This document shows, in pieces, positions 6,001 through 63,100 of a stretch of 64,000 nt of DNA (position 1 is the stretch's first letter; each line of letters begins with the position of its first letter). Source of the DNA: a virus; the IMG/VR virus record IMGVR_UViG_3300025598_000023, positions 47,325-111,324 of that record; one strand, 5' to 3'. Made by a program: the position numbers and the translations under genes. The notes under the pieces are model-generated. The model had not been told where the DNA came from. It saw only the letters and a list, made by a program, of their open reading frames with translations, and did no database searches.

Positions 6001-6129
6001 ACAAATGGAAACATTTCACTTTATGTTGCTGCCAATAGCACAATACGACAAAGCCACATGTTTGTAAATTTGGGTGAAAGTATTCAAACAAGTAACACAC
6101 CATATGCACAATTTATTAGGGCACAGTAA
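1..6129 (+). CDS. Giant virion structural protein (baseplate wedge/tail-associated), 5'-truncated by the window
   Basis: Frame 1 is open from base 1 (APTATISSTSGSGAIL...), so the track start at 574 is internal. FG-GAP-like repeats (GFGTSVSTNYDGSVVVIGA, HFGEILSLSPDGNSLVVGS), CBM5/12-like WAANTSY/WYPETQY motifs and GDG-x-T-x-F repeats. Precedes tail fibre genes. Confidence 0.7.
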   Translation, partial: APTATISSTSGSGAILTPVLYNANIAIVYESHWTETNRIVTDDPQVGGFGTSVSTNYDGSVVVIGAANSSATFSSTYNNAGKTYIYDRTAEVFVADGATTTFQLSNALANLTTITTPTLTTNPTIFVDGVIAQPTVNYSTNSITFGNAPARGSTITVQTNQFINTKIGTTDVGQQNSNYGTAVKISSDGSSVFSSATGYGLSSSQNGVVFYLLNIPQKYGTAIGSKSNFTMTANNAVRINDQLVTFTGGSVTQTVNDINAANIPHVTASVLSNNAISITTTDVNSAAKLRLRNEVGDPLNTMGIVQWHTIQRLNNPIAQDTAHFGEILSLSPDGNSLVVGSTLSNTKAKTTFDNNTTTFDINNIKFIDTVYRSGAAHIYEYQTLSDENYSSYGSYAYGTLINDQFANSFDRYSTGVDISDNFILVGAPQAKILGNQTGALYVYYNPNAQPIWQSIRSGGVDYDSRKIDRAYIYNSTTAKLIADLPVYDLTNGYLPNESETYLDFVINYDPAVYNKVPTTISFNYDRKNAWGKEKVGKLWWDINSIKYYDNTQGSTLDRFNYWGLAFPASTVNVYEWIESSVPPSQYVGSSANNTPLYTINEVYSSHVEIDSATGLAVTKYYFWVKNSTLSSGSRPSALEIQGQISLPRASSEPFAAVISPNAIALFNAKNLISIDTNMVIEYKDVLKPQLTHAEWTMFDDGTDLGVAYEFLNKLNDSLTGQDSSGRIVPDPKLPIGQRYGMDVKLRQSLFKDQYTGRKLFVENVNQVCTTYPMVLTRGAAIAALDSYDPIPDSTHYKTVVANITELGYLDTNTYLAGDQVLVLSDSNSYNNGWSLYRLNVVFPNTRTWEIIQVQTYNLNNYWSYADWYSNQYNPQAQPKYTVTTENDISNLQLNVGDIIYVTNSSNGGWKLVLVTINSLELLAQQNATIQFNTNLYDLVAANQGFQTSSFQSVGFDSDSNLEFNKIFNIIRDELLINEYRSNFKDLVKLMIDTIATQHQQTDWLMKTSLVDLYHRVRGLDQLPVYLPQPETTVTSFFSEVKPYHTKLKQYIATYDNTDSIDVAYNNVTDFDLQPYKNSVVNKYRSPQLGNSLDTNALETQSVYQPWLNNHSYGVKRVDTVTGGVGYDANTTVTIVGDGTGATAQAYVVNGSVYTITVTNSGVGYTYAKAYIFGVGTGATATVILGNGLARTTNTIIKYDRYTYFNNIQDWAANTSYTVNTVVVYNAQPYRVITAHTSGTTFDSTKFVQLVVKVWYPETQYALNDVVIYKNTSYTVNETFTSALTFDTANLTAYNGLWLDNACDRVWAYYAPKSGMAGRDLAQVMTGMEYSGNQIIGPNFNQTPGYDVNNYDYIAYDYETFNVENVADVYGSQAEDTYIQSLFTDTGLGLRPEDINIVGGDFYDAYSSHAPEEFVPGQVLDTLDIKVTTTPIANGGPDIKIFTVNYQGLKTFSFDKAITGVDYPVGGIEKFYIVDHLQGPLAESVNYSVNWQNKTISLNYTPQSGTYFYSMMIGSNGVNPVYDQDYYGDGVQTDFAVNGWTLNTVKQAYVKVNGIAVSNWSLVNITQNGVGTLAVRFATPPHVNDYIQVHLYNVALGTRAYSEWYEQTFTVPNASYPSGYNFTLANPEIYSQPISAYAIVRLNNSDLLPPQQSYYIGDGITTNYSLTNSWTETIANIVDTEIMVLVNKVLLTRNIDYTVYHDPLNIATPVIQFTTAPASGTSIVISDASQCDFRIYDGNQLWISQNVVIPQNSVITVLSQGNHDANNQYTKLFSGSTSNNSFLDNGLDSGGFDALGFDNELSNLIGQVYYTLPTAVSNINQIYITLKTPNTTGGKPLLPYTDYVLVNPTTIVLSSTLNISGASVIAVRIFGNPIREHNVEFRIFKDMRDTTRYYAVKNNKTILSANLMPSDSWVYVENVDVLQNPEPSTNTAGVVIINGERITYGVIDTINKRLGNLRRGTAGTGLYNNHVAGSVVYDSGNLLEIPNSRETYTVATNPTYITNGNISLYVAANSTIRQSHMFVNLGESIQTSNTPYAQFIRAQ

Positions 6130-33737: not shown

Positions 33738-33768
33738 TATAATCTCCGTTTTTATTATTTAATATAAT

Positions 33769-33800
33769 AAAAAAGGCTCCGAAAATTTTTCGGAGCCTTA
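33769..33800 (-). terminator. Rho-independent terminator after the VWA gene
   Basis: aaggctccgaaa/tttcggagcctt inverted repeat followed on the - strand by a U-run. Confidence 0.85.
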
Positions 33801-33836
33801 TAAGATTGGTGCAAGAAGGAACGTAAACCAATCTTA
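33801..33836 (-). other. 10-bp hairpin with CU-rich loop
   Basis: taagattggt/accaatctta perfect stem; - strand loop UUACGUUCCUUCUUGC. Confidence 0.55.
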
Positions 33837-35090
33837 ATCTTCATAATAGGCATGAACACCAAACGGCGGTTCAATAGTCTTGTTATACTTGTTATGGATA
33901 ATCCATACAGTATCACAATAATTTTCATCACCCCAAGAACCAAAGGGTTCACCGTCAGTAAACACGATAAAAAGTTTAGGTTCAACGCCTTCGTGTTGCA
34001 TCCACCGCCAATTTACATCAAAGTCAGTTCCGCCAAAACCTTTTGGTTCATAGTTTATAAGTTCATCACCATCAGCAGTAGTATATTCTTGTGGGTTATG
34101 AACTTGTGTATCAAAGCACCAAATCTTAATCTTGTAATCATCATAAGATTGCATGATACCATTGATTTCACTAAAAAAAGCAGTCAATTGTTCTTGACCA
34201 ATTGAACCGCTAGTATCGATAGCAATGCAAACATCAATAGCTTGATCCTTACGCATGTTAGGCAGAACAAACCCTTGCGAGAACATTTTCTTGTTAGGAA
34301 TAGTCCAAGTGTAATCATTCTTAACAGTAGATTGGATTTGTTGTGTAATGAGTTCACGCCAGTTGATTTTAGGCTGTGTGAGTTCATTAATCATACGCTT
34401 GACATTGCCAGGACAATCGCCAGCGCCAGCACTTTGTGCTGCTGCAAGCATAGCTTCCTTAAACTCGTCTTTAATCTTTTGGCGTTCTTCTTGTGAAAGT
34501 GTAGGACGGCCCTTACCTTCTTTATCACCGTCTTTGTCTTCACCGCCATTGCCATCTTTTTCAGGATCAAGATGGTCATCAAGCATTTGGTCAAGCAAAT
34601 CTTCAATGTTAATTTTCTGTGCATTCTTGATCAAGTCTTCATAAACTTGTTCAAAGTTCCAATCATCATACTTGCGATCATAAAGAATAGGAAGAACAGT
34701 AATACGTTGACCAAGGTTATACTTGATGCAGTCAGCATTTACCACATAGTCCATTGCAATGTTTGCAAGGTCTTTCTGTTTGCCAATACCACGGTTCATG
34801 TGGTCGTAAGCGCAATGAAGCAACTCATGGCAGAACAAAAACATCATTTGATTGGTAGGAAGTTTGAGGATAAAGTCACTGTTGTAATAAAAGTGACGAC
34901 CATCAGTAGCCGCAGTGGTCAGCCAGCTATCAGCATTGACCAGTTTGAGCCGCATGGCAAGATTTCCAAAAAACGGTTGTTTAATTACAAGGGCAATACG
35001 AGCCTTGAGAATTGCTTGACGTGCATCATAGTCGACCTTTGGGTCAACCGTATCGGACAGTTTGCCAGCACCTTGTTTCATCTTAGCCAT
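33834..35090 (-). CDS. Metallopeptidase-VWA domain protein (DUF2201-type, MoxR partner)
   Basis: TAATDG, HELLH (HExxH), DTSGS MIDAS, GGTDF, FTDG. Confidence 0.85.
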   Translation of the reverse strand: MAKMKQGAGKLSDTVDPKVDYDARQAILKARIALVIKQPFFGNLAMRLKLVNADSWLTTAATDGRHFYYNSDFILKLPTNQMMFLFCHELLHCAYDHMNRGIGKQKDLANIAMDYVVNADCIKYNLGQRITVLPILYDRKYDDWNFEQVYEDLIKNAQKINIEDLLDQMLDDHLDPEKDGNGGEDKDGDKEGKGRPTLSQEERQKIKDEFKEAMLAAAQSAGAGDCPGNVKRMINELTQPKINWRELITQQIQSTVKNDYTWTIPNKKMFSQGFVLPNMRKDQAIDVCIAIDTSGSIGQEQLTAFFSEINGIMQSYDDYKIKIWCFDTQVHNPQEYTTADGDELINYEPKGFGGTDFDVNWRWMQHEGVEPKLFIVFTDGEPFGSWGDENYCDTVWIIHNKYNKTIEPPFGVHAYYED

Positions 35091-35115
35091 AATCGTTCTC
35101 CAATTTCTATAATCT

Positions 35116-35154: not shown

Positions 35155-35568
35155 TCAAGAAAAAGCCATTATTTGTTCGAAAATATTGGTTTTATTTAAA
35201 TTTAAGTCAATATATCCATTAAAACCAACATAATTTGTTGCAATTTTACTTTGGTTTTCACAATTTATTACTATATTTTGCTGTAAATATACTTCATTTA
35301 TTGGAAACATATCTAATTTAATACTGCAAATTTTAACAAATTTATCAGCAATAATTTTATTGTCTTCAATAATTGTGTCATTTTTCATATCTTTTCCACT
35401 AAAATCTATTTTAATTTTTTTGGGAAGATTTACAAATAAACTTTGTTCTACAAACTTTTCACCCGTGGGATTTATCACAATATCATCGCCAATAAATTTT
35501 ACAGTCATTGTTTTATTTTTGACATAGCCAAATTCAAACAAAAATTTTATTTCTACATTATCAAACAT
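35155..35568 (-). CDS. Hypothetical protein (very AT-rich)
   Basis: 137 aa, 8-bp overlap with the B12-radical SAM gene. Confidence 0.55.
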   Translation of the reverse strand: MFDNVEIKFLFEFGYVKNKTMTVKFIGDDIVINPTGEKFVEQSLFVNLPKKIKIDFSGKDMKNDTIIEDNKIIADKFVKICSIKLDMFPINEVYLQQNIVINCENQSKIATNYVGFNGYIDLNLNKTNIFEQIMAFS

Positions 35569-37018
35569 TGTTTTTAATTAAACTTTCTAGCACAAAATGA
35601 TTATCAAGGTTATCAACAACATTGTAACCTAGTTTTTTACTGTAATTCATAAGGTCAATCGTCCATTGCGCCCTTATTTTTGGTGTACTATTAATAGACG
35701 GATTTATCCATTCATTTGGCAAGGGACCAATTTTTGTTATTCCTAATTTTTCTTTATTATTATCTAAAAAAGTATTTGGGAAAATACCTAATGTCCCACC
35801 CCATTGAATTACCAGTGTGTCTTTATACTCAATATGAGTTGCTAACCAATTTTTTATATAGTTAATATGTGTTTGTGTTTCAGTAATGTATCCAACGATA
35901 TTAAGTAAAGTAATTTTTATGTTATATTTTTTAGCTTGTTTTAAATAAAAATCTATAGATTCATTAGTAAATTTTTTACCCATGGCGTATCTAATATCTT
36001 CATTTAGATTTTCAACTCCAACACTTAAAACATTTGCACCAGACTTAGCTATTAACTCCCATTCATGTTCACTGCTTTGAGATATATTTCTAAAAATAAA
36101 ATATCCAGACCAACTAAAAGAATTATTTGGATTTTTTGTATTATAATTTGCCAATAACTTTAAAAATTTTAAAAATTCTTTTTGATTGCCATTAGTCAAA
36201 CTGTCTTGAAATTTAAAATTTCTTATATTATATTTTTTGTTTTGAATTAACATTTCATTGAATATTTCTTCTGCTTCTCTCCAGTGAAAGTTTTTCCAAT
36301 TAGAAATGTAATCACAAAAAGTGCACTTTCTTACACATCCTCTGCTGCCTACTAAAGGCAATATTCTTTTTCTATAATTTGCAAAATTATAATCGTCATA
36401 ATCAGGATACGGTAAACTTCTAACTTCTTCCCTACTCAGTTCTTGCCATGATGGTGTATTAATTCCATTATAATCATTGTTACCATTTAAAAGTTCAATA
36501 AGTGAACGTTCACCATCGCCGCGAATATGCCAATCAGCTAATTTTTCATTTAGCATAAAATTTACAAATTCACTTGGACCAGTAAAGGTATCTAAACAGC
36601 CAGCACCGCCAATTAATATTTTGATTTTGGGATTGAGTTTTTTAATATAGTATGCTATCCATTTTCCACTTTGCTGACAAACATAAGAAAATAGACTTAA
36701 CCCCACATATTTTGGTTTATAAGAAATAATTTTAGTAGCAATATTTTTAAACAAATTATGTAAAAAATTTGCTGCCTCATTATCAGCAACACCATCAAAG
36801 AAAAATTTTATCAATTCATCTTTTAAAGGATGAATTGTTATTATATTAAATATTTCTATATTAAGATCGATTGCTAAACAGCTATAACCACATTTTTCAA
36901 TTATTGGTTTTAGTGCTGCTGGTGCCATCAACGGCAAATTAGTATCAATCCAGGGCACAGTGGTTATAATAAAATCTATCTTTTTATTTTCGGAATTATC
37001 TAAACATTCAATTTTCAT
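35561..37018 (-). CDS. Cobalamin-binding radical SAM protein (class B methyltransferase-like)
   Basis: N-terminal B12-binding-like region (VGLSLF, ILIGG, GDGE), LPYPDYDDY, SRGCVRKCTFC, SVGVEN. Confidence 0.8.
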   Translation of the reverse strand: MKIECLDNSENKKIDFIITTVPWIDTNLPLMAPAALKPIIEKCGYSCLAIDLNIEIFNIITIHPLKDELIKFFFDGVADNEAANFLHNLFKNIATKIISYKPKYVGLSLFSYVCQQSGKWIAYYIKKLNPKIKILIGGAGCLDTFTGPSEFVNFMLNEKLADWHIRGDGERSLIELLNGNNDYNGINTPSWQELSREEVRSLPYPDYDDYNFANYRKRILPLVGSRGCVRKCTFCDYISNWKNFHWREAEEIFNEMLIQNKKYNIRNFKFQDSLTNGNQKEFLKFLKLLANYNTKNPNNSFSWSGYFIFRNISQSSEHEWELIAKSGANVLSVGVENLNEDIRYAMGKKFTNESIDFYLKQAKKYNIKITLLNIVGYITETQTHINYIKNWLATHIEYKDTLVIQWGGTLGIFPNTFLDNNKEKLGITKIGPLPNEWINPSINSTPKIRAQWTIDLMNYSKKLGYNVVDNLDNHFVLESLIKNNV

Positions 37019-37028: not shown

Positions 37029-37033
37029 CACAC

Positions 37034-37072
37034 TAAAATAGGGGAGAAGTGCTGTGAACACCACCCCCCTAT
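37034..37072 (-). terminator. Rho-independent terminator after the ATPase gene
   Basis: AUAGGGGGG...CUCCCCUAU stem followed by UUU. Confidence 0.7.
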
Positions 37073-37074
37073 AG

Positions 37075-37112
37075 TCTCGCCCTCACTGTGATGGAGAACG
37101 ATAGGGGCGAGA
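37075..37112 (-). ncRNA. Candidate 3'-UTR RNA hairpin with anti-SD loop
   Basis: 8-bp stem tctcgccc/gggcgaga. The loop AUCGUUCUCCAUCA is complementary to phage RBSs. Confidence 0.4.
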
Positions 37113-38237
37113 TTAACGCAATGCAGACATGATGAAGTCACCATTCTTAGCGTGGAATTCTTTATAGTTTGCCAGTTTACTTGTTTTCATTGGCAGACTA
37201 TAAACACGGACAAGAGTAGCAATCATCATAACTTGCAATTCTGTATCCATGTGATCAAGGAAGAAACGGATAACATTATCAATTTCACCATGCCAAGCAG
37301 TGTAGTCGGCATCTTTCATCTTGTCACCGCCGCGACGAACACAGCTATCCTTGAGTTCATAGCAGCATGAGACTGTAAGAGAATACTTTGCACCAATGTC
37401 TTTAGCTTTGAGTTCCTTGATTTTACCAGCAAGAATATCGCTTGGATTTGGCATTTGGCTTGCAACCTTGCGATGTGCAGAGAATTTAAGTGCAACACCT
37501 TCACCAACCGTGCCCGCAACAAGGTCATTCAATTCGGTATCACCAAGGTCTTCTTGCAAAAGGTCGCTAACAAACGACCAAGAACGAGGCGTAGCGAATG
37601 ATGCACCGCTTGAACGTGGGTCAAAGTTGAACAAATCACCTTTGTTACAGGTCACGTAAGCCACAACATCAGGGCTGATACCATGGTTCAATGCCCATTC
37701 ATTCCACGACTCAAAGTCAACACGCAAGTTCAAGTGAACAAAACGGTTAGCAAGTGGCGATGGCATACGATACACGACACCACGGTCAGTATCACGGTTA
37801 CCAGCGGCAACGATAACAACATTGTCAGGAAGTTCATAAGTGCCGACACGACGATTAAGAACCAATTGATATGCGGCAGCTTGAGTTGCAGGTGCAGCAG
37901 AGTTCATTTCGTCGAGGAAAAGCACCACAACAGGATACTTTGCGGCTTCCTCGGCAGTAGGCAAATCAGGCGGTGCATTCCACATCGCATTACCCACGGT
38001 AGGATTGTAGTAGAGAACACCCTTAAGATCGGAAGGGTCCATAAGTGCAAGACGCAAGTCATACAACTTGCCGCCCATGCTTTCGCAAATATCAGCAACC
38101 AATTCAGACTTGCCGATACCAGGCGCACCCCACAAGAAGATTGGGCGCTTACGCTTCATACATACCATAATTTCACGCTTAGCAGATGCAAGCGTAACTG
38201 TCCGCACTTCGGACACAGCATCATTAACTTTAGCCAT
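37113..38237 (-). CDS. MoxR-like AAA+ ATPase
   Basis: GAPGIGKS Walker A, LFLDEMN Walker B, AAGN, PLANRF, TPRSW. Confidence 0.9.
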   Translation of the reverse strand: MAKVNDAVSEVRTVTLASAKREIMVCMKRKRPIFLWGAPGIGKSELVADICESMGGKLYDLRLALMDPSDLKGVLYYNPTVGNAMWNAPPDLPTAEEAAKYPVVVLFLDEMNSAAPATQAAAYQLVLNRRVGTYELPDNVVIVAAGNRDTDRGVVYRMPSPLANRFVHLNLRVDFESWNEWALNHGISPDVVAYVTCNKGDLFNFDPRSSGASFATPRSWSFVSDLLQEDLGDTELNDLVAGTVGEGVALKFSAHRKVASQMPNPSDILAGKIKELKAKDIGAKYSLTVSCCYELKDSCVRRGGDKMKDADYTAWHGEIDNVIRFFLDHMDTELQVMMIATLVRVYSLPMKTSKLANYKEFHAKNGDFIMSALR

Positions 38238-38267
38238 TTGTTTTCTCCATCAGTTGACTATAATATT

Positions 38268-38295
38268 AATATAACAGATTATTCTTGGTTGTCAA
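38268..38295 (-). promoter_or_regulatory. sigma70-type early promoter
   Basis: TTGACA-N16-TATATT with TG extension. Confidence 0.7.
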
Positions 38296-38971
38296 GCACT
38301 TTTTTTGTCTCTAAAAGTGGCTGAACCTTCATTTTAATCCGCACATAATGCAGACGTGTTTTGCTGTCCTCATCATGTTTATGGATGCGGGCTGTCAAAA
38401 TAATGACACTTCCACGCTCAAATTTTTCGGCAAACGGAAATAACACAAGGCAGTTATCTTCTGTCAGTCCAGTATGATACCACTTGTTATAATTATAGCT
38501 AAAAACTGCCGAAATAATGGTGATTTTTCCTTCAAAATTATCACCTACTTTGCCAAAATGTCGGCTATTTGCTTGCAAAGTATTAATTTCATCACGTGCA
38601 TTTTCACGAGCAATAGCATTTTTATATGAGCTTGGAACACTAGCAATTAGTGCTAAAGTCTTGTAATCATTAGCTAAAAATTCTTTCTGTTCAGTCAATA
38701 GAACCAAATTTCGCCAATAATCGTGCAATGTGCCGCCAATAAGTTCAAACATTTTACCATCAAGATATTCAATAATTTGTTCAGCACTTTCAATATCTTG
38801 TGGCAAAGCATTAACGTGTTCAATTTCAGGATTAAGGATATCACGCATCAATGCACCGTTGCTTTCCTCCCCCTTTTCTTTGTCAGCTTCATAGCGTTTG
38901 ATATAACGACCATTAATTCGTTGTGCCGCACAAGCAGCAGAAATAGCGTCTTTTAAGGTAATATTAGTCAT
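38279..38971 (-). CDS. Hypothetical protein, possible C-terminal OB-fold
   Basis: 230 aa; SRHFGKVGD...TRLHYVRI beta-rich end. Confidence 0.6.
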   Translation of the reverse strand: MTNITLKDAISAACAAQRINGRYIKRYEADKEKGEESNGALMRDILNPEIEHVNALPQDIESAEQIIEYLDGKMFELIGGTLHDYWRNLVLLTEQKEFLANDYKTLALIASVPSSYKNAIARENARDEINTLQANSRHFGKVGDNFEGKITIISAVFSYNYNKWYHTGLTEDNCLVLFPFAEKFERGSVIILTARIHKHDEDSKTRLHYVRIKMKVQPLLETKKVLDNQE

Positions 38972-39084
38972 TTTGCACCTTTATGCTTGTTTTTACGGCT
39001 ATAGCTACCCTTGCCCTTACGGGGGGTGACAATTTTTTGACGATATTTGGGGTCCGCAAGTGACTTTGCAATAAGGCTACGCAT
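38968..39084 (-). CDS. arfA: ArfA-like alternative ribosome rescue factor (38 aa, not in ORF track)
   Basis: MRSLIAKSLADPKYRQKIVTPRKGKGSYSRKNKHKGAK; KGKGSY core; SD GGAGA; own promoter; ATGA overlap with the downstream gene. Confidence 0.7.
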   Translation of the reverse strand: MRSLIAKSLADPKYRQKIVTPRKGKGSYSRKNKHKGAK

Positions 39085-39108
39085 CGCTAGTTCTCCATCT
39101 ATAATGCT

Positions 39109-40529: not shown

Positions 40530-40731
40530 TTTCTGTAATCCTTATGACAGTATTCGAAAGTTTATCATATTTGCTACGCATTTCCAAATATGAAATCCAT
40601 CCAAGCGTAGCAGCAATATAAATTCCAGTTTCTTTGTAATCAGTAAAAAATGAATTTACAGTTAAAATTCCAAAAGCTACAAGCATCATCCAAGGTATAA
40701 CAACATCAAAAATTTTTAAAAATTTATCCAT
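40513..40731 (-). CDS. Small two-TM membrane protein
   Basis: Two hydrophobic stretches; ATG at 40731 with GGAG SD. Confidence 0.5.
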   Translation of the reverse strand: MDKFLKIFDVVIPWMMLVAFGILTVNSFFTDYKETGIYIAATLGWISYLEMRSKYDKLSNTVIRITENESQS

Positions 40732-41722
40732 AAGAAGTCTCCATAAGAGGTTTAGCCAAAATATCGGCAATGGGTTGAACATTTTCAGAAAGTTTTACAA
40801 GTTCCCATTTACTGCAGAACTTGATTAGTTGACTGCCAATTTGACGATTGCTCTTGGGCTGAACTTGTAACAGTGCAGCATCAATAGCATCACGTATTTC
40901 TTGTGGTTGTGCAGTCAAATCTACAAGGATACGGTTTTCTTCATACCGATCAAGCACACGGTGTTCTACGCCTTCATGATCTACCCAACGCTGTAGCATC
41001 ATGTTATTCCATGCCCAACCACGTTTTTCACGGTCGGCAAAGGCTTCTACAAGACCAACTTTTTTGGTGCTGCCTTTAGTGCGAACACCAGGATAAGCAG
41101 TCATAATATTATCAGTTGGATCACCACGCATGCATTTTTCAAATAGTACAAACTTAGGGTCACCAACTGTTTTGGGTGCTTTAGTTTTACTATCAACAAC
41201 TACTTTCCCGTTATCGTCAAAATAACCTTGCAAAGTAATATGTTGATTTGTCAACCCATTGTAAATGCTGACATTTTCAGCAAGCAGTTGGTGGAAGTCA
41301 CTGTCATTGCTTAGTATAATATGTTCATCTTGTGGATGAAGTGCAATCCAACGAGCAATAATATCATCGGCTTCTGCACGTGCAACCTTGATTACACTGC
41401 AATTTGTTTTGTCATTAACCCAATTAGTAAAGTCCTCATAGGCTTTCCAAAACTCTGCATCTTCTTCTGCTTCACGTGCAGTCATTTTACTTTTAATAAC
41501 CGCACGATTTGCTTTATAAGTGCCTTTGTGATCCTTGCGCCAACTACGGCTTTCAAGGGCAAAAATAACATGGTCAGGCTTATGCAACCGATTTACCTTT
41601 TGAATAACGTTAAAGGTAATATGCAGTGCAAGCCCAATTTTCTGCCAAGTATCCGTTCCACGATTTGTGGAGTGACGGGCACGTGAGAACAGATTAGCTG
41701 TATCAACGAGAAGATATTTCAT
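40724..41722 (-). CDS. rnh: 5'-3' exonuclease / T4 RNase H-like flap nuclease
   Basis: LLVD, WRK..YKANR, EADDII, SNDSDFHQL, GDPTDNI..PGV. Confidence 0.85.
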   Translation of the reverse strand: MKYLLVDTANLFSRARHSTNRGTDTWQKIGLALHITFNVIQKVNRLHKPDHVIFALESRSWRKDHKGTYKANRAVIKSKMTAREAEEDAEFWKAYEDFTNWVNDKTNCSVIKVARAEADDIIARWIALHPQDEHIILSNDSDFHQLLAENVSIYNGLTNQHITLQGYFDDNGKVVVDSKTKAPKTVGDPKFVLFEKCMRGDPTDNIMTAYPGVRTKGSTKKVGLVEAFADREKRGWAWNNMMLQRWVDHEGVEHRVLDRYEENRILVDLTAQPQEIRDAIDAALLQVQPKSNRQIGSQLIKFCSKWELVKLSENVQPIADILAKPLMETSYG

Positions 41723-41728
41723 AATACC

Positions 41729-41757
41729 AATATAATATCTGGAGTTTATTTTGTCAA
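41729..41757 (-). promoter_or_regulatory. sigma70-type promoter, probably leaderless
   Basis: TTGACA-N17-TATATT, then 6 nt to the ATG at 41722. Confidence 0.6.
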
Positions 41758-41760
41758 GGG

Positions 41761-42209: not shown

Positions 42210-42521
42210 TTATTGGTTTGGCACACGATAACAGTGGCGTTCCACACCAAGAAAATTACCATAGCGGTCAAAAACTTGCTCACGGCGACACTCTGTGTGA
42301 TAATAATTTTCATCATCATAACGAGGCTGATTTGCAATAGCACCGCCAACAATTCCACCGATAATAAGACCACCAATAAGTGGTGCAACCCAATTACCAC
42401 CACCGCCACTATGATAGCCAGGACGTGGACCTTCATAACGACGATCACGCCATTGTGCATTTGCTGACGTTGCAGAAATTAATGTAGTAGCTGCGAGTAG
42501 GATAGCTAATGTCTTACGCAT
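42210..42521 (-). CDS. Secreted glycine-zipper protein (Rhizobiales BA14K-like architecture)
   Basis: Signal peptide (..SANA|Q), G/H/R-rich linker, GGLIIGGIVGGAIA zipper, terminal Cys pair. ATG at 42521 with GGAGA. Confidence 0.6.
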   Translation of the reverse strand: MRKTLAILLAATTLISATSANAQWRDRRYEGPRPGYHSGGGGNWVAPLIGGLIIGGIVGGAIANQPRYDDENYYHTECRREQVFDRYGNFLGVERHCYRVPNQ

Positions 42522-42546
42522 TTGGGTTCTCCAATGAACTATAACC

Positions 42547-57138: not shown

Positions 57139-60100
57139 TTAAACTTCACGAATAAAATATATTCCTCGTTCATAACCATTTCTTAATGTATCATCAAGAC
57201 CTTGTTCTTTATAATATTGTAATAATAGTTCATATGCTTCTGTAGGTGTAGCCGCACCAACATCCATAATTGGTGAAGTGCCATTAAAAGTTGTGTACAA
57301 TCTAAACACCTTTGGTGCAGTAGGACTACCAATACGGTTTAGAATTTCATCATTTGGTTGTGGTTTTGGTTGTGGTTGTGGTTTTGGTTTTCTAACACCT
57401 GCTGCGTATTCTTGTGGTGTCCATAATTCAAAATCACCATGATTGTATTCTATGCTACGTGCTATTCTGTAATAATTTTGCTTTAGTTTTGTTATAGCAT
57501 CATCATAACTATTAGCACGAACACGCAAGTATACCCATCTGTTAGCTGTGCTTATTACATAAAACTCTTGTTTGCCTGAACCTATTACGTGAGCAAGATT
57601 TATATCTTGTTTGCCCAAATTAGGAACACCATAGCCAGTTCCAACACCTTCTAATCTGCGAGTACCACGATAGATTAGCATAGTGTTATCATGCGCTGCT
57701 GCATATTGTGTTGCAATTTCTATAACTTGTTGTAGCGTGTATTTTGCTGGATCAAACATACCAATTACATGGTCGTTGTAATCTTCAATACGATATGCAA
57801 ATGCTTCATATGTTAATTTGGCAGATGGTTTAAAATCTAATTTTTCTGCTTCAATCTTATTGATTTCTCTTGCAATAGCAGCAATACTACTATTAAAATA
57901 ATCATATGTGCTTAAATTTACAGCATTTCGCTGCTCTTTAGTCATATTAGGTATAAAATAATTTTCTATAGCACTTTCTGCTTCTTCTCTACTATATGTT
58001 TTAGGTAGCAACATTACTGTTTCTGGGTAGTATCTGCTTGTTCCTGTTGATAGAGTCATTGTTGCATGCCAAACAGAATAAAACGGCCAATTAAACACAT
58101 AATTGCTTGGGTTTTGATTACGTTCACGTAACCAATCATTTGCAAGTTTAACTATTTCATTTATTCCTTCGCCACGAACTTCTACAACACTATCGCCATC
58201 ATTTGATTCAATATTGGCTACAATTTTACCCTGACCAATTGGTTTTACAGGCTCACGTTTCTTTTGTGCAGCAGTTACTTGTGCAATCAATTCATCTTTG
58301 CTGATGCCACCAGCAACATATTTTGCAAAAATATCAACTGTGCTTGTAGGTTGTTTAATGCTATCTACAATAAGTTTATAAAACTTTTTAGCATATTCTT
58401 GTTTGCTATCTTCTGGGTCAGCAGCAGCAGCCATTGCACGAACATAACGCAACATAGTATTGCGTATTTCATCATATTGTTCAAAGTAATTGCCACCAGC
58501 ACTGCGGAACTCAATATAGTTAGACTTGATATTCACGCTTACATAACGGTCGCCACGTGTGCCACTAATAATTTTGTTTATTTCTTTATTAGTTTGGTCA
58601 AGTAAACCAACACGTGCATCATCCAATATTTGTGGTAGCGTCTTGCGGAAATCACGCATTTCTGTTGCTTTCTTGGCTTGGTCAAGCATACTTTTAGTCC
58701 AACGGCTGTTTAGACGACCAAAACGTTCTAATACATATTTGTCACCAAGCAACAACACAAGTTTAAGGTGATTTATGTTTTCCATAGTTTGTTCTGGAAT
58801 ACTAACGCCAATATGGAAACCAGTTGTTCTATTGGTATAATAACCATTACTTTTTGCCCATTTAAACACGGTTTGAAGCGCAGCAAGACCATCATCAAGC
58901 AGCATAGGTGGTGATACAAGTTCAATGCCACCATCTTCATCATCATTTGGACTATCAAGTGAACTATCTGGTTCAAATATCCAAGTGCTTTCATCACGTG
59001 ATGCATTATGATAGCCACTGCTTGCTCGTGCTTTATAACCAGTTGTGCGTCTAAAATCATCTACAACATCACCAATATCTGTTGTTGGTTCTCTACTGCT
59101 GGTATATGTATAATACGGCCATGACAGTGATTCACGAGTATTGCGATTTACCCAACGCATAAAGTCATACATATCATCAATGCTATTGCGACTTATGAAA
59201 TTACGCCAAACTTCATCTTCGTTGTTTTCCATCCAAGCGGTGCGAACATTATCTTTGGCATCATCAAGTTCACTTTCACTTGCTTCATCCATAGGCGTGT
59301 CGCCTAATTCTTCTTGAACCTCTGCTTTCCAATCTGTAGTATTTTCATAATTCTCGTCATAAAACTCATATTGGTATTCACTAAATGCTTCATAAAAAGA
59401 TTCTAATGCACTTTCAACCTCACGACGAGTATTGATTCCATTACCGCCAGTAAAGAAGTTCATAACATCACGTTGACGATCACGATAGGATGCACTGCTT
59501 GGAAACTCTTCGTTGGCATCCATATCCTCTTCTTCTTCCTCTTCGCCTTCTTCACCGCCAAGACCAGGAATATACATTTCGGTTTCAAAACCAACCTTCA
59601 TGCTCTTTGCAAATGGTGTATCAGCAAACTTTTCAAGAGATGTAGGACTCATATTGATTTCATTGAGGATACTTTCTTCAATGCTTTCGTTGCGAGGAGC
59701 AAGTTGAACTTCATAACTCTCATCACCAAGATGTTCGTTTGACCAAGATTCAGCATAGCGTTCAGCACCACGAGGTGATGCTGCACGGAACTCATGGACT
59801 ACACCGCCTCTGGCAATAATTTGATATTTTACACCTTCGGCAGCAGTGATATTAGTTTGCTGTCTTGGGATAGCATTGCCCGCAATATCATAACCACGAT
59901 CAATTTCTATTTGTGAATATTGGCGTGGTTGTTCTGGTTGTGGTCTTGGTTGAGGAATTGTTTGACCTTGTGTATCCCATAAATTATCATTGTTGGGTGA
60001 TCTTATAGCAATAGTTGCTAATGGAAGACCACGCTCTTGCGCAAATCTTTGTGCTGCTTGACTTGCTTGGTAAAAACTGCGTGCTTGTGTTGCTAATAAT

Positions 60101-63100
60101 TCTGTGCCATCGCTGCGATTTACAACAACATATGTTCCACCAACATTACCAGATTGTGTTTGTGCTTGTGTGCCAGCACCAGCAATAGGTGTCATTGTAT
60201 CATCATTTGCTAATGTCAAGTACCAAGAGTCTTGATTATAACCATATTCACTTGTTAATCGATTAGCCGTTTGAAGAGCATAATTTACATGTCTTTCACG
60301 GAACTGTGCTATTGCAGTATTATCGCTTGCTTTACGGATAACATATAATTCACCATTACCAGGTATTCCAACTGTGCGTGTTTCTTCACCAGTGGTAATA
60401 TTATAATAGTGTTTAACACCCATATAATCTTGGCGCAGTTCTACACGACCATTGGAAATATCGTGTTGATGCAACCAACGATCTGCTAAATCACGTGCAT
60501 CATTAAGATTATCCGCACGAATTTTTTTGAATTCTATATCTGTATTATAAAAAACTATTGTATATTCATTAGAACCGCTACCAAGTGCTTGTTCATCACC
60601 AGTAAAACTAATTGGCGGCAATGTTGGCACAAGATTACCTGTAACTGCACGTGTTTTTACACGAACCAATCGTGTATCGCCAAAACGATAACCATTATAA
60701 TCTGCCCAATCACGTGCGGTTTTATAAGCAGCGTATGGATCATTACTATAAAAAGTATGGACCGTTTTGCCAGCCACACGATCCATAATTTGATATTCTT
60801 CTGTGCTTGGATTTTTACCACGACTAATATCACGCTTTGCTTGGACATTGCGAATTTGTGATAGCAGTGCTGCTTTTGGTATAGTGCCGCTTACATATTG
60901 TGAGAAGTATTTGATTGTATCTGTATCTTCTTTTTTAGCACCGCTTGCTAAAAGTTTATAAAACTTTTTAGCATATTCTTCTTTTTCTGCTTCTGGATCA
61001 AGTGCTATGCTTAACGCATAAACCGTGCGATAAAGTGTATTGATAACCGCATCTAAATCCATATCTAACCAATTACCACCAGGACTGCGTATTTCTATAC
61101 GATTATCTTTGGTGTTGATACTTGTAAACTTGTCAGTATATGTATCATGGATAATTTTACTTACTGTGCGATTTAAGTTAGAACGCATAAGTGATAATGC
61201 TTGTTCTGCTTTGGTAGGATCACGCTTAATAACATTTTCAATATTATCAAGTGCGCTCTTTGTATAGGTATTACCCAAACGACCAAAAGTATCTAATACA
61301 TACTTGTCGCCTAAAAATAATGCCATCTTTACATAATCAAGATTTTGTAAATTATAACCTGGTAAACTTACATTCATATGCAAGCCAGTAGTTCTGTTGG
61401 TATAGGCATTACCTTCTTTTGCCCATGCTGCTACTTTCTTAATAACATCAACCATATCAGGTATTTTAAGTGCTGGTGCAACAAACTCCCAACCTTCACC
61501 GCCACGACCACTACTTGCGTGTAGACTGCTATCAGGTTCTACTTTAAAGTATCCAGCTTTTTGGGCTTGTGCGTGATAACCGCCGCTAACTTGAACTGGA
61601 TAACCAACTGCCTGTCTAAAACTTTCTGCTGGTGGACCATTGCCTCTTGATGGACGATTATCATAATCTGGTTCTGTCCAATATGGCCAATTTAAATCAT
61701 AATTATTTGAAAAATTACTAAAATAACTACCGCCAGTAGTATCATCAAGAAAATCTTCTATTGGATCGCCATTTTCTTCATAATTTTCAAGCCAATCATC
61801 ATAATGTGATTTTTTAAATGCAGCATATGTATCTAGCGGTGGCAATTCAGGAAATAGTTCAGTTTGGTTTGCAATATCACGACCATATGTTTTGTCTAAC
61901 CATTGTTGATATCGTGTATCGGTTTGGCCGCTTTCAGGACTGTTAGCCCATGTATCAAACCTAATAGGCAACCATTCATCATAGTCTTCTCTTGCTCTTT
62001 CCAATGCAGATCGAACATCGCGGCGACTATTATGATCGCCATAGAAGAAATCCATGATTTCACGTTCAAAATCTTGCCAATCACTTGCCCTTACGTAGCC
62101 ATCATAACCAGCATAGTCTGGTTCGCTTTCAAAGTCCTCATATGGATCATAATCATCATCATCCGCATCTTCAAACTCGGTAACGATAAGTTCAAACTCT
62201 AAACCAGCCTTTGCAAGTGGTAATTTATCAACTGCACTTTTAAGCGCACTTGGACTCATATTCACTTCATTAAGTAGTTCTTCGGTAATTATATTGCTAT
62301 CACCTACTTCAATACCTTCAAGCCATGGAATCTTTGGACTGCTTGGTTCACCCATCATATGTTTATCCCAAGGAAATACACCAGTTTTACGGTCGGTTAG
62401 CACAGCACCGCCTCCAACAGTTCCTAAAATACTATTTGCATGTTCAATTTTTTGTTCTGGACCAAACTTCTTAATGAATTTTGCTTTGTCTTTTGGCATT
62501 TCGTAGTCCAGTGAAATTTGGTTATCAATTTTCCCACTCTCATCAGTTATTACATCAACTGCAATATGCTTGAATCCAAGTGCAGTTTGTGCATATACAC
62601 GATACATCTTTTTAAGATCATCCAAGAAACCTTGAACAAAAAATGTGAGAGTTGCTTTTGCAAAACGCACATATCCAAGTTTAAATGCTTCTTCATAACC
62701 ATCAATGTTTTTACTATAAAGCCACCCCAGATGTTCTTCTTTCGTAACATAAACAACTTTACGATCAGGCAATATCCAACCATGTGTTTCATTTGGATCA
62801 AGTGCTTCTTCAACACTTTCTTTCTGCTGTGCTTCTGCATCCCACTTCTTGTGCAAGAATGTCAGTAAACCCTTTACATCATTGGCACCAATCTTGCGCA
62901 TAGCAGCGATAATTTTAGTTGCCGCTTCATAACCACTGTTTCCTGGTTTACGAGCATTGGTAATTTCATTGCGTAGTCCAAGGTCATCAGCAAACTGACC
63001 ACCATTCCAATAGGTCAAACTATAACGCAGTTTATTTGCTTCTTTGGATAACTCACTGCGGCTCTTCTTAAAGATGAGTTCTAACCAAGGTTCAAGATAT

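Follow-up and report, generated by a model that had tools for sequence, protein, structure and literature searches.

Immediately downstream of the stop codon of a MoxR-like ATPase gene, in the DNA of an uncultured phage, lies a GC-rich hairpin whose loop is complementary to the ribosome-binding sites (RBS) of several of the phage's early genes, and the question raised by this locus is which message, or messages, such a loop would address. The original prediction, derived from the DNA letters, held that the hairpin and the adjoining terminator constitute a 3'UTR-derived small RNA that shuts down early-gene translation, to which leaderless genes would be immune. The comparative analysis described here points to one principal partner: with a probability that we put at roughly 0.65, the hairpin is a cis-encoded 3'UTR regulatory element whose loop pairs with the leader and Shine-Dalgarno (SD) sequence of the ATPase's own message, thereby controlling its translation. 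The element is better described as an auto-regulatory 3'UTR anti-TIR hairpin (TIR denoting the start region of a gene, here taken as -30 to +3), with possible further effects on other early genes bearing the same leader.

The analysed stretch, hereafter the window, covers 64 kb at the right-hand end of a viral contig of 111 kb (G000) with a G+C content of ~35%, and the sequencing runs that carry it are freshwater metagenomes, with no RNA run listed among them. An ATPase 90% identical to that of the window (locus L035) is part of a complete record of 338,435 bp with direct terminal repeats (G004), while CheckV rates ~100-kb contigs of the same phage group as ~30% complete; taken together, these data indicate that the window is a fragment of an uncultured freshwater giant phage. 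The contig would thus represent about one third of a ~338-kb genome; it also encodes a 4665-aa ORF (up to position 6129 of the window, plus strand) and a 1754-aa ORF (57139-62403, minus strand). From ~27 kb onwards, the genes of the window lie mostly on the minus strand. A nucleotide search of cultured phages returned distant ATPase matches only, and a search of the window DNA for tRNA and tmRNA genes found none.

The usual partner of the ATPase is a DUF2201 metallopeptidase/VWA protein, the window copy of which is located at 33834-35090. The two genes are separated in the window by a B12-binding radical SAM gene (485 aa) and a 137-aa ORF (35155-37018, minus strand); most close relatives have a gap of just 121-166 nt from the ATPase stop to the start of the VWA gene, and loci L255 and L259 carry other inserts of ~1.2 kb at this position. 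The radical SAM cassette has no sigma70-type promoter of its own, only a TAAATA 4 nt ahead of its ATG, and would thus depend for expression on either transcription that reads through the weak terminator or a T4-like late promoter.

The stop codon of the ATPase (TAA) occupies 37113-37115 on the minus strand, and the sequence beyond it is exactly as originally described: both the letters and the predicted fold contain the 8-bp stem right after the stop, the anti-RBS loop and the terminator next to it (Table 1). The 102-nt stretch that holds both hairpins has a minimum free energy of -37 kcal/mol (z = -4.0 against shuffles), and the apical UUCUCCAU has a predicted unpaired probability of ~0.9-1. 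The first hairpin does not have the make-up of an intrinsic terminator, as its stem is followed by ACUAUAGGGG, without U's, and a U-tract is found only at the second hairpin; it shares the intrinsic terminator of the ATPase gene, which is directly adjacent and is strong in relatives. Rfam 15, applied at gathering threshold to the whole 64 kb, matched no family, neither the phage C4 antisense RNA nor any known sRNA, and a search by E-value over 201 nt gave a best local score of 17 bits (E 1.7), the gathering score being 55. A reading of the element on the opposite strand, as a leader plus ATG, was discarded, given that the ATG is ATA in the window group and that an upstream promoter is absent.

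Table 1. Coordinates of the ATPase transcription unit, its 3' element and the start regions complementary to the loop (positions in the window).
Feature	Position	Strand	Basis or remark
MoxR-like AAA+ ATPase gene, 374 aa, bearing the element in its mRNA	37113..38237	-	PHROG 1297, E 2.8e-89; Pfam AAA, AAA_3, AAA_5
Early ATPase promoter, sigma70-type (TTGACA, 16 nt, TATATT, extended -10 TG)	38268..38295	-	11/12 consensus matches; conserved in relatives
3'UTR hairpin, 8-bp GC-rich stem (UCUCGCCC/GGGCGAGA) around a 22-nt loop	37075..37112	-	fold; near-invariance in 30 distinct relatives
Hairpin 5' arm, UCUCGCCC	37105-37112	-	
Hairpin loop, 22 nt, CUAUCGUUCUCCAUCACAGUGA	37083-37104	-	
Hairpin 3' arm, GGGCGAGA	37075-37082	-	
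Anti-TIR loop segment, AUCGUUCUCCAUCA	37089..37102	-	complementarity and fold
Loop core predicted to pair with the ATPase leader, UUCUCCAUCA	37089-37098	-	complementarity and fold
Intrinsic terminator (hairpin 37038-37072 and short U-tract)	37031..37072	-	weak here (4 U), strong in relatives (6-8 U)
ATPase leader/SD, proposed cis target, ACUGAUGGAGAA	38243..38254	-	10 nt contiguous here (38243-38252), 12 nt in most relatives
RBS of VWA/DUF2201 partner, possible secondary target, UGGAGAACGAU	35092..35102	-	11-nt complement, exact match
RBS of ArfA-like gene, possible secondary target, GAUGGAGAAC	39090..39099	-	10-nt complement, exact match
RBS of gene 42210-42521, UGGAGAAC	42526..42533	-	8-nt complement, exact match

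All of the complementarities named in the original prediction were found, i.e., those to the start regions of the VWA gene (11 nt), the ATPase itself (10 nt), the ArfA-like gene (10 nt), gene 42521 (8 nt) and polB (7 nt, at TGGAGAA), and the minus strand of the whole 111-kb contig holds just one further match to the loop of at least 10 nt. The contiguous match to the ATPase leader is cut to 10 nt by a CA insertion in the window loop; most relatives are without this insertion and thus possess a 12-nt perfect complement (UUCUCCAUCAGU versus ACUGAUGGAGAA). Predicted duplexes between the loop and the TIRs of the five listed genes range from -13 to -18 kcal/mol, and those of the three TIRs that match over 10-11 nt from -15 to -18 kcal/mol, as compared to -7.2 +/- 3.5 kcal/mol for all 110 called genes. 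Since loops bearing UCUCC will match many GGAGA Shine-Dalgarno sites in any case, a Monte Carlo test, which asked how often the third-best of 111 start regions reaches a match of at least 10 nt, was also conditioned on the core: the probability is 4e-4 for random 22-mers of genome composition, 0.002 with TCTCC fixed and 0.014 with TTCTCCA fixed. The contig has 33 intergenic regions of at least 35 nt, and few places were therefore open to choice; among those flanked by two genes on one strand, the hairpin region is the only one with TCTCC on the sense strand.

The loop matches the motif YUGAUGGAGAA, which is common to early genes with sigma70-type promoters, and the short ATPase leader (...UAUAGUCAACUGAUGGAGAA..AUG) is kept in all close relatives. 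The UGAU part of this motif would not pair with the textbook 3' end of 16S rRNA, which may not be that of the host. Within G004, the 9-mer GATGGAGAA occurs eight times on both strands, where a composition estimate predicts ~2.4; seven of these copies are early-gene ribosome sites, each following closely on a strong promoter of the TTGACA/TATATT type (at 39, 79 (two), 214 (two), 215 and 318 kb), and the eighth is the hairpin loop, in antisense. As several early genes of the clade use the same leader, they too could be touched by the loop.

Of note, strong TTGACA-N17-TATATT promoters that place the ATG 7-9 nt past the -10 element are numerous in G004 and are also present in the window (41723-41760, minus strand), as exemplified by the promoter at 41757-41729 ahead of a 5'-3' exonuclease gene (40724-41722). 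Such spacing points to a leaderless class of early mRNAs in addition to the leadered YUGAUGGAGAA one, and the existence of early genes that are devoid of the loop's target, as originally proposed, was thus borne out. Furthermore, in L010-L031 several early genes located ~300-1300 nt upstream of the ATPase start carry an identical whole leader, UUAUAGUCAAUUGAUGGAGA, which holds an 8-bp palindrome, TCAATTGA, just past the predicted transcription start; the shared leader and palindrome suggest duplicated promoter-leader cassettes or a putative operator. The ArfA-like gene (38968-39084, minus strand) is a 38-aa ORF, MRSLIAKSLADPKYRQKIVTPRKGKGSYSRKNKHKGAK, with its own promoter (39136-39109) and a stop codon that overlaps the ATG of the next gene, and three sequence variants of it occur among relatives. 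Its match to Pfam ArfA (PF03889, E 3.8e-10, 39.5 bits against a cutoff of 25.5) identifies it as a predicted phage-encoded alternative ribosome-rescue factor, in a short, already 'truncated' form.

Relatives of the locus were collected as 36 viral contigs through the ATPase protein, with more obtained by a pattern scan of metagenomes, and 30 distinct sequences were aligned. The hairpin, CUCGCCC-[C/U]AUCGUUCUCCAUC-[A(CA)GUGA]-GGGCGAG, was found to be almost invariant in this alignment. The last 90 nt of the ATPase gene vary at many third-codon (synonymous) positions, the post-stop spacer ranges from 0 to 5 nt, and the stem sequence of the terminator has been altered repeatedly with its pairing retained. 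The conserved block corresponds exactly to the inverted repeat, indicating that the hairpin itself is the selected unit. Hairpin, terminator and anti-RBS loop all show strong purifying selection and depart statistically from chance. The stem has been kept as strictly as the loop, a constancy for which pairing with a leader is by itself an insufficient explanation and which could point to a protein partner.

The conservation of the complementarity differs among the candidate targets. The ATPase leader (ACTGATGGAGAA) is conserved, and a 10-12-nt perfect complement to it is present in every listed hairpin-bearing relative of the window clade except L034, in which the loop has diverged, the leader is unchanged and 8 nt are left; hairpin variants comprise this locus (loop ACCCGUCUCCAUCCGUUAGG), L007 and L174. 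The match to the VWA gene, 11 nt in the window, amounts to 6-8 nt in the closest relatives, and that to the ArfA-like gene is 10-11 nt in one subgroup and 8 nt or broken in another. An apparent compensatory change in L034 between the loop (CGUCUCCAUC) and the ArfA-like RBS (GAUGGAGACG) was rated as weak, because the leader is divergent throughout and a two-position agreement has a chance of ~1/16 with several candidate genes available.

A search of viral contigs with the bare 14-mer ATCGTTCTCCATCA proved too unspecific, as nearly all of the matches listed were unrelated and without hairpin context, and among them this context was seen only in contigs of this phage group. A metagenome scan with stem plus core recovered the same clade, one new loop variant (L174, with its leader off the contig) and many GC-rich-looking false matches. 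In L021, L063 and L183, which represent one contig end, the sequence past the terminator loop is the exact reverse complement of itself, forming a palindrome centred on GTTGCAAC, most probably a product of fold-back during assembly rather than of a genuine inversion.

The evidence that carries the assignment to the ATPase comes from more distant relatives. For example, L032, whose ATPase is 56% identical, has an unrelated leader (CUCACAGGAA), and its first post-stop bases (UUCCUGUGAG) are the exact complement thereof. To place such cases on a quantitative footing, 80 loci retrieved with a profile of four ATPases, among the matches listed (at least 599 stretches), were compared with respect to the TIR (-30 to +3) and the first 60 nt past the stop codon. 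Start codons in this set were assigned by a simple rule, and loci with homologous leaders or tails were collapsed into 40 sequence-distinct lineages (ATPase identity 52-95%), which are not fully independent of one another. A perfect complement of at least 9 nt was detected in 9 of the 40 lineages listed, against 1.0% of mismatched TIR/UTR pairs (binomial P 2.6e-10), and one of at least 10 nt in 6 of the 40, against 0.26% (binomial P 1.0e-9). Within-locus controls for matches of at least 9 nt yielded no direct repeats, no reversed matches and a single complement-only match, and likewise none with the last 63 nt of the ORF, with positions +60 to +123 past the stop or with the ORF interior. An energy test gave a concordant result, with 10 of the 40 lineages listed surpassing at least 95% of mismatched UTRs (P = 2e-5). 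The statistical test suggested alongside the original prediction thus came out clearly in favour of a non-random match, both for the window loop (the Monte Carlo value of 4e-4) and across the lineages.

The TIR segments that are mirrored after the stop are ACTGATGGAGAA in the window clade, TTGGAGGTGC and TGGAGGTGCC in L261 and L262, GAAAGGAGTA in L270, GTGACTAAGG in L288, AACACAGCCATG, GAACACAGCC(C), GAACACAGCCC and GACACAGCC in L299, L315, L320 and L318, respectively, CCCAAGTAC in L301, AGCCCTATG(TC) in L304 and CTCACAGGAA in L309. All of them fall within -21 to +3, and hence comprise SD, spacer or AUG. In most of the matching lineages that were folded, a GC-rich hairpin with a large loop stands a few nucleotides past the stop and holds the anti-TIR segment in that loop; the sister clade L261/L262, for instance, has the same hairpin layout with a different pair of sequences (loop GCACCUCCAA versus TIR UUGGAGGUGC). 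At least eight different sequence pairs demand as many co-changes, despite the incomplete independence of the lineages, and on the ATPase tree the trait requires at least five to seven changes. Loop and own TIR have consequently changed together in distant relatives, from which we conclude that the 3' tail of the message most probably pairs with the start of that same message. The feature is dispensable for the ATPase gene, as ~70% of the lineages listed are without it, including the closest cultured relative, PA5oct (46% identity), and it is not clearly present in either of the cultured relatives PA5oct and Sinorhizobium phage Phosso.

The covariation between loop and RBS that was anticipated for related phages was accordingly found for the ATPase's own TIR (9 of the 40 lineages listed), and not for the VWA gene (1 of 25), the match to the ArfA-like gene varying from less than 9 to 11 nt. 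Among 131 genes of G004 with a 3' non-coding flank, only the ATPase and its VWA partner attain a 10-nt complement to their own TIR, the pair of the latter being ATGGATAGGA versus UCCUAUCCAU. In this VWA gene (211373-212635, minus strand, locus L228), the first ten post-stop nucleotides, UCCUAUCCAU, are the exact complement of the leader AUGGAUAGGA, and a predicted pairing of the VWA gene with its own 3'UTR is also present in L251 and L260; the VWA 3'UTR of the window (33738-33833) has a different hairpin, with a complement of only 5 nt to its own TIR. The L288 loop, AGUCCCUUAGUCACGGAC, complements two overlapping alternatives at the ATPase start (GUGACUAAGG at -18 and GUCCGUGACU at +2..+11), and in the related loci L279 and L286 the same loop type matches the TIR of the VWA partner, UCCGUGACUAUG, instead.

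The significant covariation with the ATPase's own start makes a 5'-3' pairing on the ATPase mRNA, akin to that of icaR, the best reading of these data. The message would, according to consensus predictions, run from the early promoter (38295-38268) to the terminator (~37031-37072), and its stem would display a large open loop, of which UUCUCCAUCA (UUCUCCAUCAGU in most relatives) could base-pair with the leader and Shine-Dalgarno sequence ACUGAUGGAGAA. Such pairing may take place within one mRNA molecule, between molecules or via a stable 3' fragment; the intramolecular contact would be a pseudoknot-type interaction, which is beyond the scoring of the folding tools used. Once the 3' end has been made, the 30S binding site would be occluded, and ATPase translation would be limited or timed, with a possible link to mRNA stability. 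It may be speculated that ribosomes load mainly during transcription of the 1.1-kb gene. We infer from the sequence that leader and hairpin reside on one transcript and that the loop-leader duplex would form in vivo, and the effect is inferred to be repression rather than, for example, protection of mRNA ends.

The model that comes closest to the original prediction, and which is compatible with the cis reading, is a trans-acting 3'UTR-derived sRNA, in which a stable ~80-nt fragment consisting of hairpin and terminator would repress the early genes with YUGAUGGAGAA leaders while leaderless genes escape. We consider this a tentative possibility. It would account for all eight copies of GATGGAGAA in G004, seven as promoter-proximal TIRs and one as the loop, and for the three window TIRs that match over 10-11 nt with duplexes stronger than the TIR mean of -7.2 kcal/mol; the layout of hairpin and terminator resembles that of known 3'UTR-derived sRNAs, many early promoters would give leaderless mRNAs, and in other lineages the loop also finds matches at neighbouring TIRs, those of the VWA partner (10 nt each in L304 and L279) and of upstream genes (L301 and L270). 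However, the closest relatives retain just 6-8 nt of the VWA match, which shows no enrichment among the lineages listed (1/25, P = 0.22), the ArfA-like match is 8 nt or broken in one subgroup, and the co-change of loop and ArfA-like RBS in L034 sits in a leader that has diverged throughout. The lineages of G005, G006 and G007, moreover, have the motif solely in the TIR of the ATPase and in the 3'UTR of that gene, a few apparently CDS-internal copies aside. A conserved internal promoter for such an RNA was not found, and the TATATT seen in some relatives, which was considered as a candidate, corresponds to a Tyr-Ile codon pair that is missing from the window. Of the proposed early-gene shut-off, then, the correspondence between loop and early-gene motif stands, whereas the significant signal concerns the ATPase's own start and the VWA match is neither conserved nor enriched. 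The likeness to alphaproteobacterial sRNAs such as AbcR and cuckoo/CcsR, which had been invoked in its support, is an analogy only. A broader and slightly more doubtful proposal combines both modes of action: a widespread phage class of 'mRNA closure', spanning many giant and T4-like phages, in which the tails of MoxR/CobS-like ATPase messages, and in some phages also that of the VWA partner, would pair with their own start, so that ribosome loading would be confined to the period of transcript synthesis and a co-transcriptional timer would govern protein yield. In the present clade the same loop would, in addition, act in trans on a half-dozen early genes with YUGAUGGAGAA leaders, leaderless ones being exempt, which would amount to an early shut-off by RNA alone, in analogy to T4 RegB/RegA.

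The remaining explanations dispense with the pairing as the primary function. The hairpin might serve in stability, processing or antitermination as the binding site of an RNA-binding protein from phage or host, with the leader complementarity being secondary; the location of the element immediately upstream of the terminator and a stem that is as invariant as the loop, whereas the neighbouring terminator stem varies, are in keeping with this. It is nevertheless improbable, as it leaves unexplained why unrelated loops in at least eight lineages mirror the TIR of their own gene, and the Rfam searches returned no known RNA family or protein-binding motif. Still less probable is a function at the DNA level, whereby the 9-13-bp inverted repeats that flank the 1.1-kb gene would serve recombination or inversion, as an on/off flip or a cassette boundary. 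Gene content downstream of the hairpin is indeed variable, as the radical SAM cassette and the inserts in L255 and L259 demonstrate, but the left repeat lies on the SD or AUG (-21 to +3) in every matching lineage and the right one within a hairpin loop in most of them. The VWA partner is found downstream on the same strand in 60 of 60 tblastn loci (only such hits having been kept), with no flipped copy, and the sole palindromic contig end (L021, L063 and L183) is centred on the terminator loop and has the appearance of an assembly fold-back. That an ordinary stabilising or terminator hairpin carries an anti-SD-like CUCC in its loop by chance is scarcely credible: a UCUCC-containing loop does match many GGAGA sites and the 64-kb window had been searched for anything notable, yet the chance probabilities, with and without the core fixed, lie between 4e-4 and 0.014, relatives have kept the loop almost unchanged, and the covariation in independent lineages has a P of ~3e-10.

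If the cis reading is correct, these phages time or cap the expression of a chaperone-type ATPase by closing its mRNA on itself, and the present clade could further reveal an RNA-based shut-off of early genes. The natural variants would, if confirmed, offer a ready set for testing how loop-leader contacts block initiation, and since the promoters are near the sigma70 consensus, E. coli should suffice as a test system for the complete unit, in place of the phage's own host. A full-text literature search did not find a description of an element in a phage gene whose 3'UTR pairs with the SD of the same gene.

Known systems resemble the element in part. The phage P1/P7 c4 antisense RNA possesses loops complementary to the ribosome-binding region of a gene of the same unit, the translation of which it blocks (PMC12197685), although c4 is a separate RNA, produced by processing, that is encoded ahead of its target in the immunity region of a temperate phage, while the element described here is downstream of its target gene. 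Trans-acting sRNAs derived from the 3'UTRs of bacterial genes, and candidate 3'UTR-derived ncRNAs of virulent phages, have been reported (PMC5502269; PMC10914365). The likeness to these consists of a location at the mRNA 3' end, an intrinsic terminator shared with the gene and a seed complementary to TIRs; the statistically supported target here, in contrast, is the parent mRNA itself. The T4 RegB and RegA factors, which shut off early mRNAs through the SD or TIR, are proteins, and in T7 gene 1.1/1.2 a 3' sequence of the unprocessed mRNA pairs with an upstream RBS in a manner that depends on an RNase III site. To our knowledge, neither the T4 nor the T7 system has a conserved loop that covaries with its own TIR, and pairing between the 3'UTR and SD of the same mRNA has been demonstrated experimentally for very few bacterial genes, with icaR as the textbook case. 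In the icaR mRNA of Staphylococcus aureus, an anti-SD motif in the 3'UTR pairs with the SD region of the same mRNA and is reported to inhibit its translation (Ruiz de los Mozos et al. 2013, PMC3868564). What the phage element has in common with icaR is that part of the 3'UTR complements the gene's own SD/TIR, over 10 nt in the window and 12 nt in most relatives; the likeness is one of functional class and not of homology. The phage element differs in that its anti-TIR segment lies within the large loop of a short GC-rich hairpin located a few nucleotides past the stop, in that the predicted pairing can span the spacer and AUG besides the SD, in that the 10-12-bp duplex is probably too short for RNase III, and in that it belongs to a giant phage of the lytic type. 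The support for it is comparative, from covariation over many lineages, and not experimental; it thereby comprises natural compensatory variants, with at least eight sequence versions of one element on one orthologous gene, such as single-gene studies do not have.
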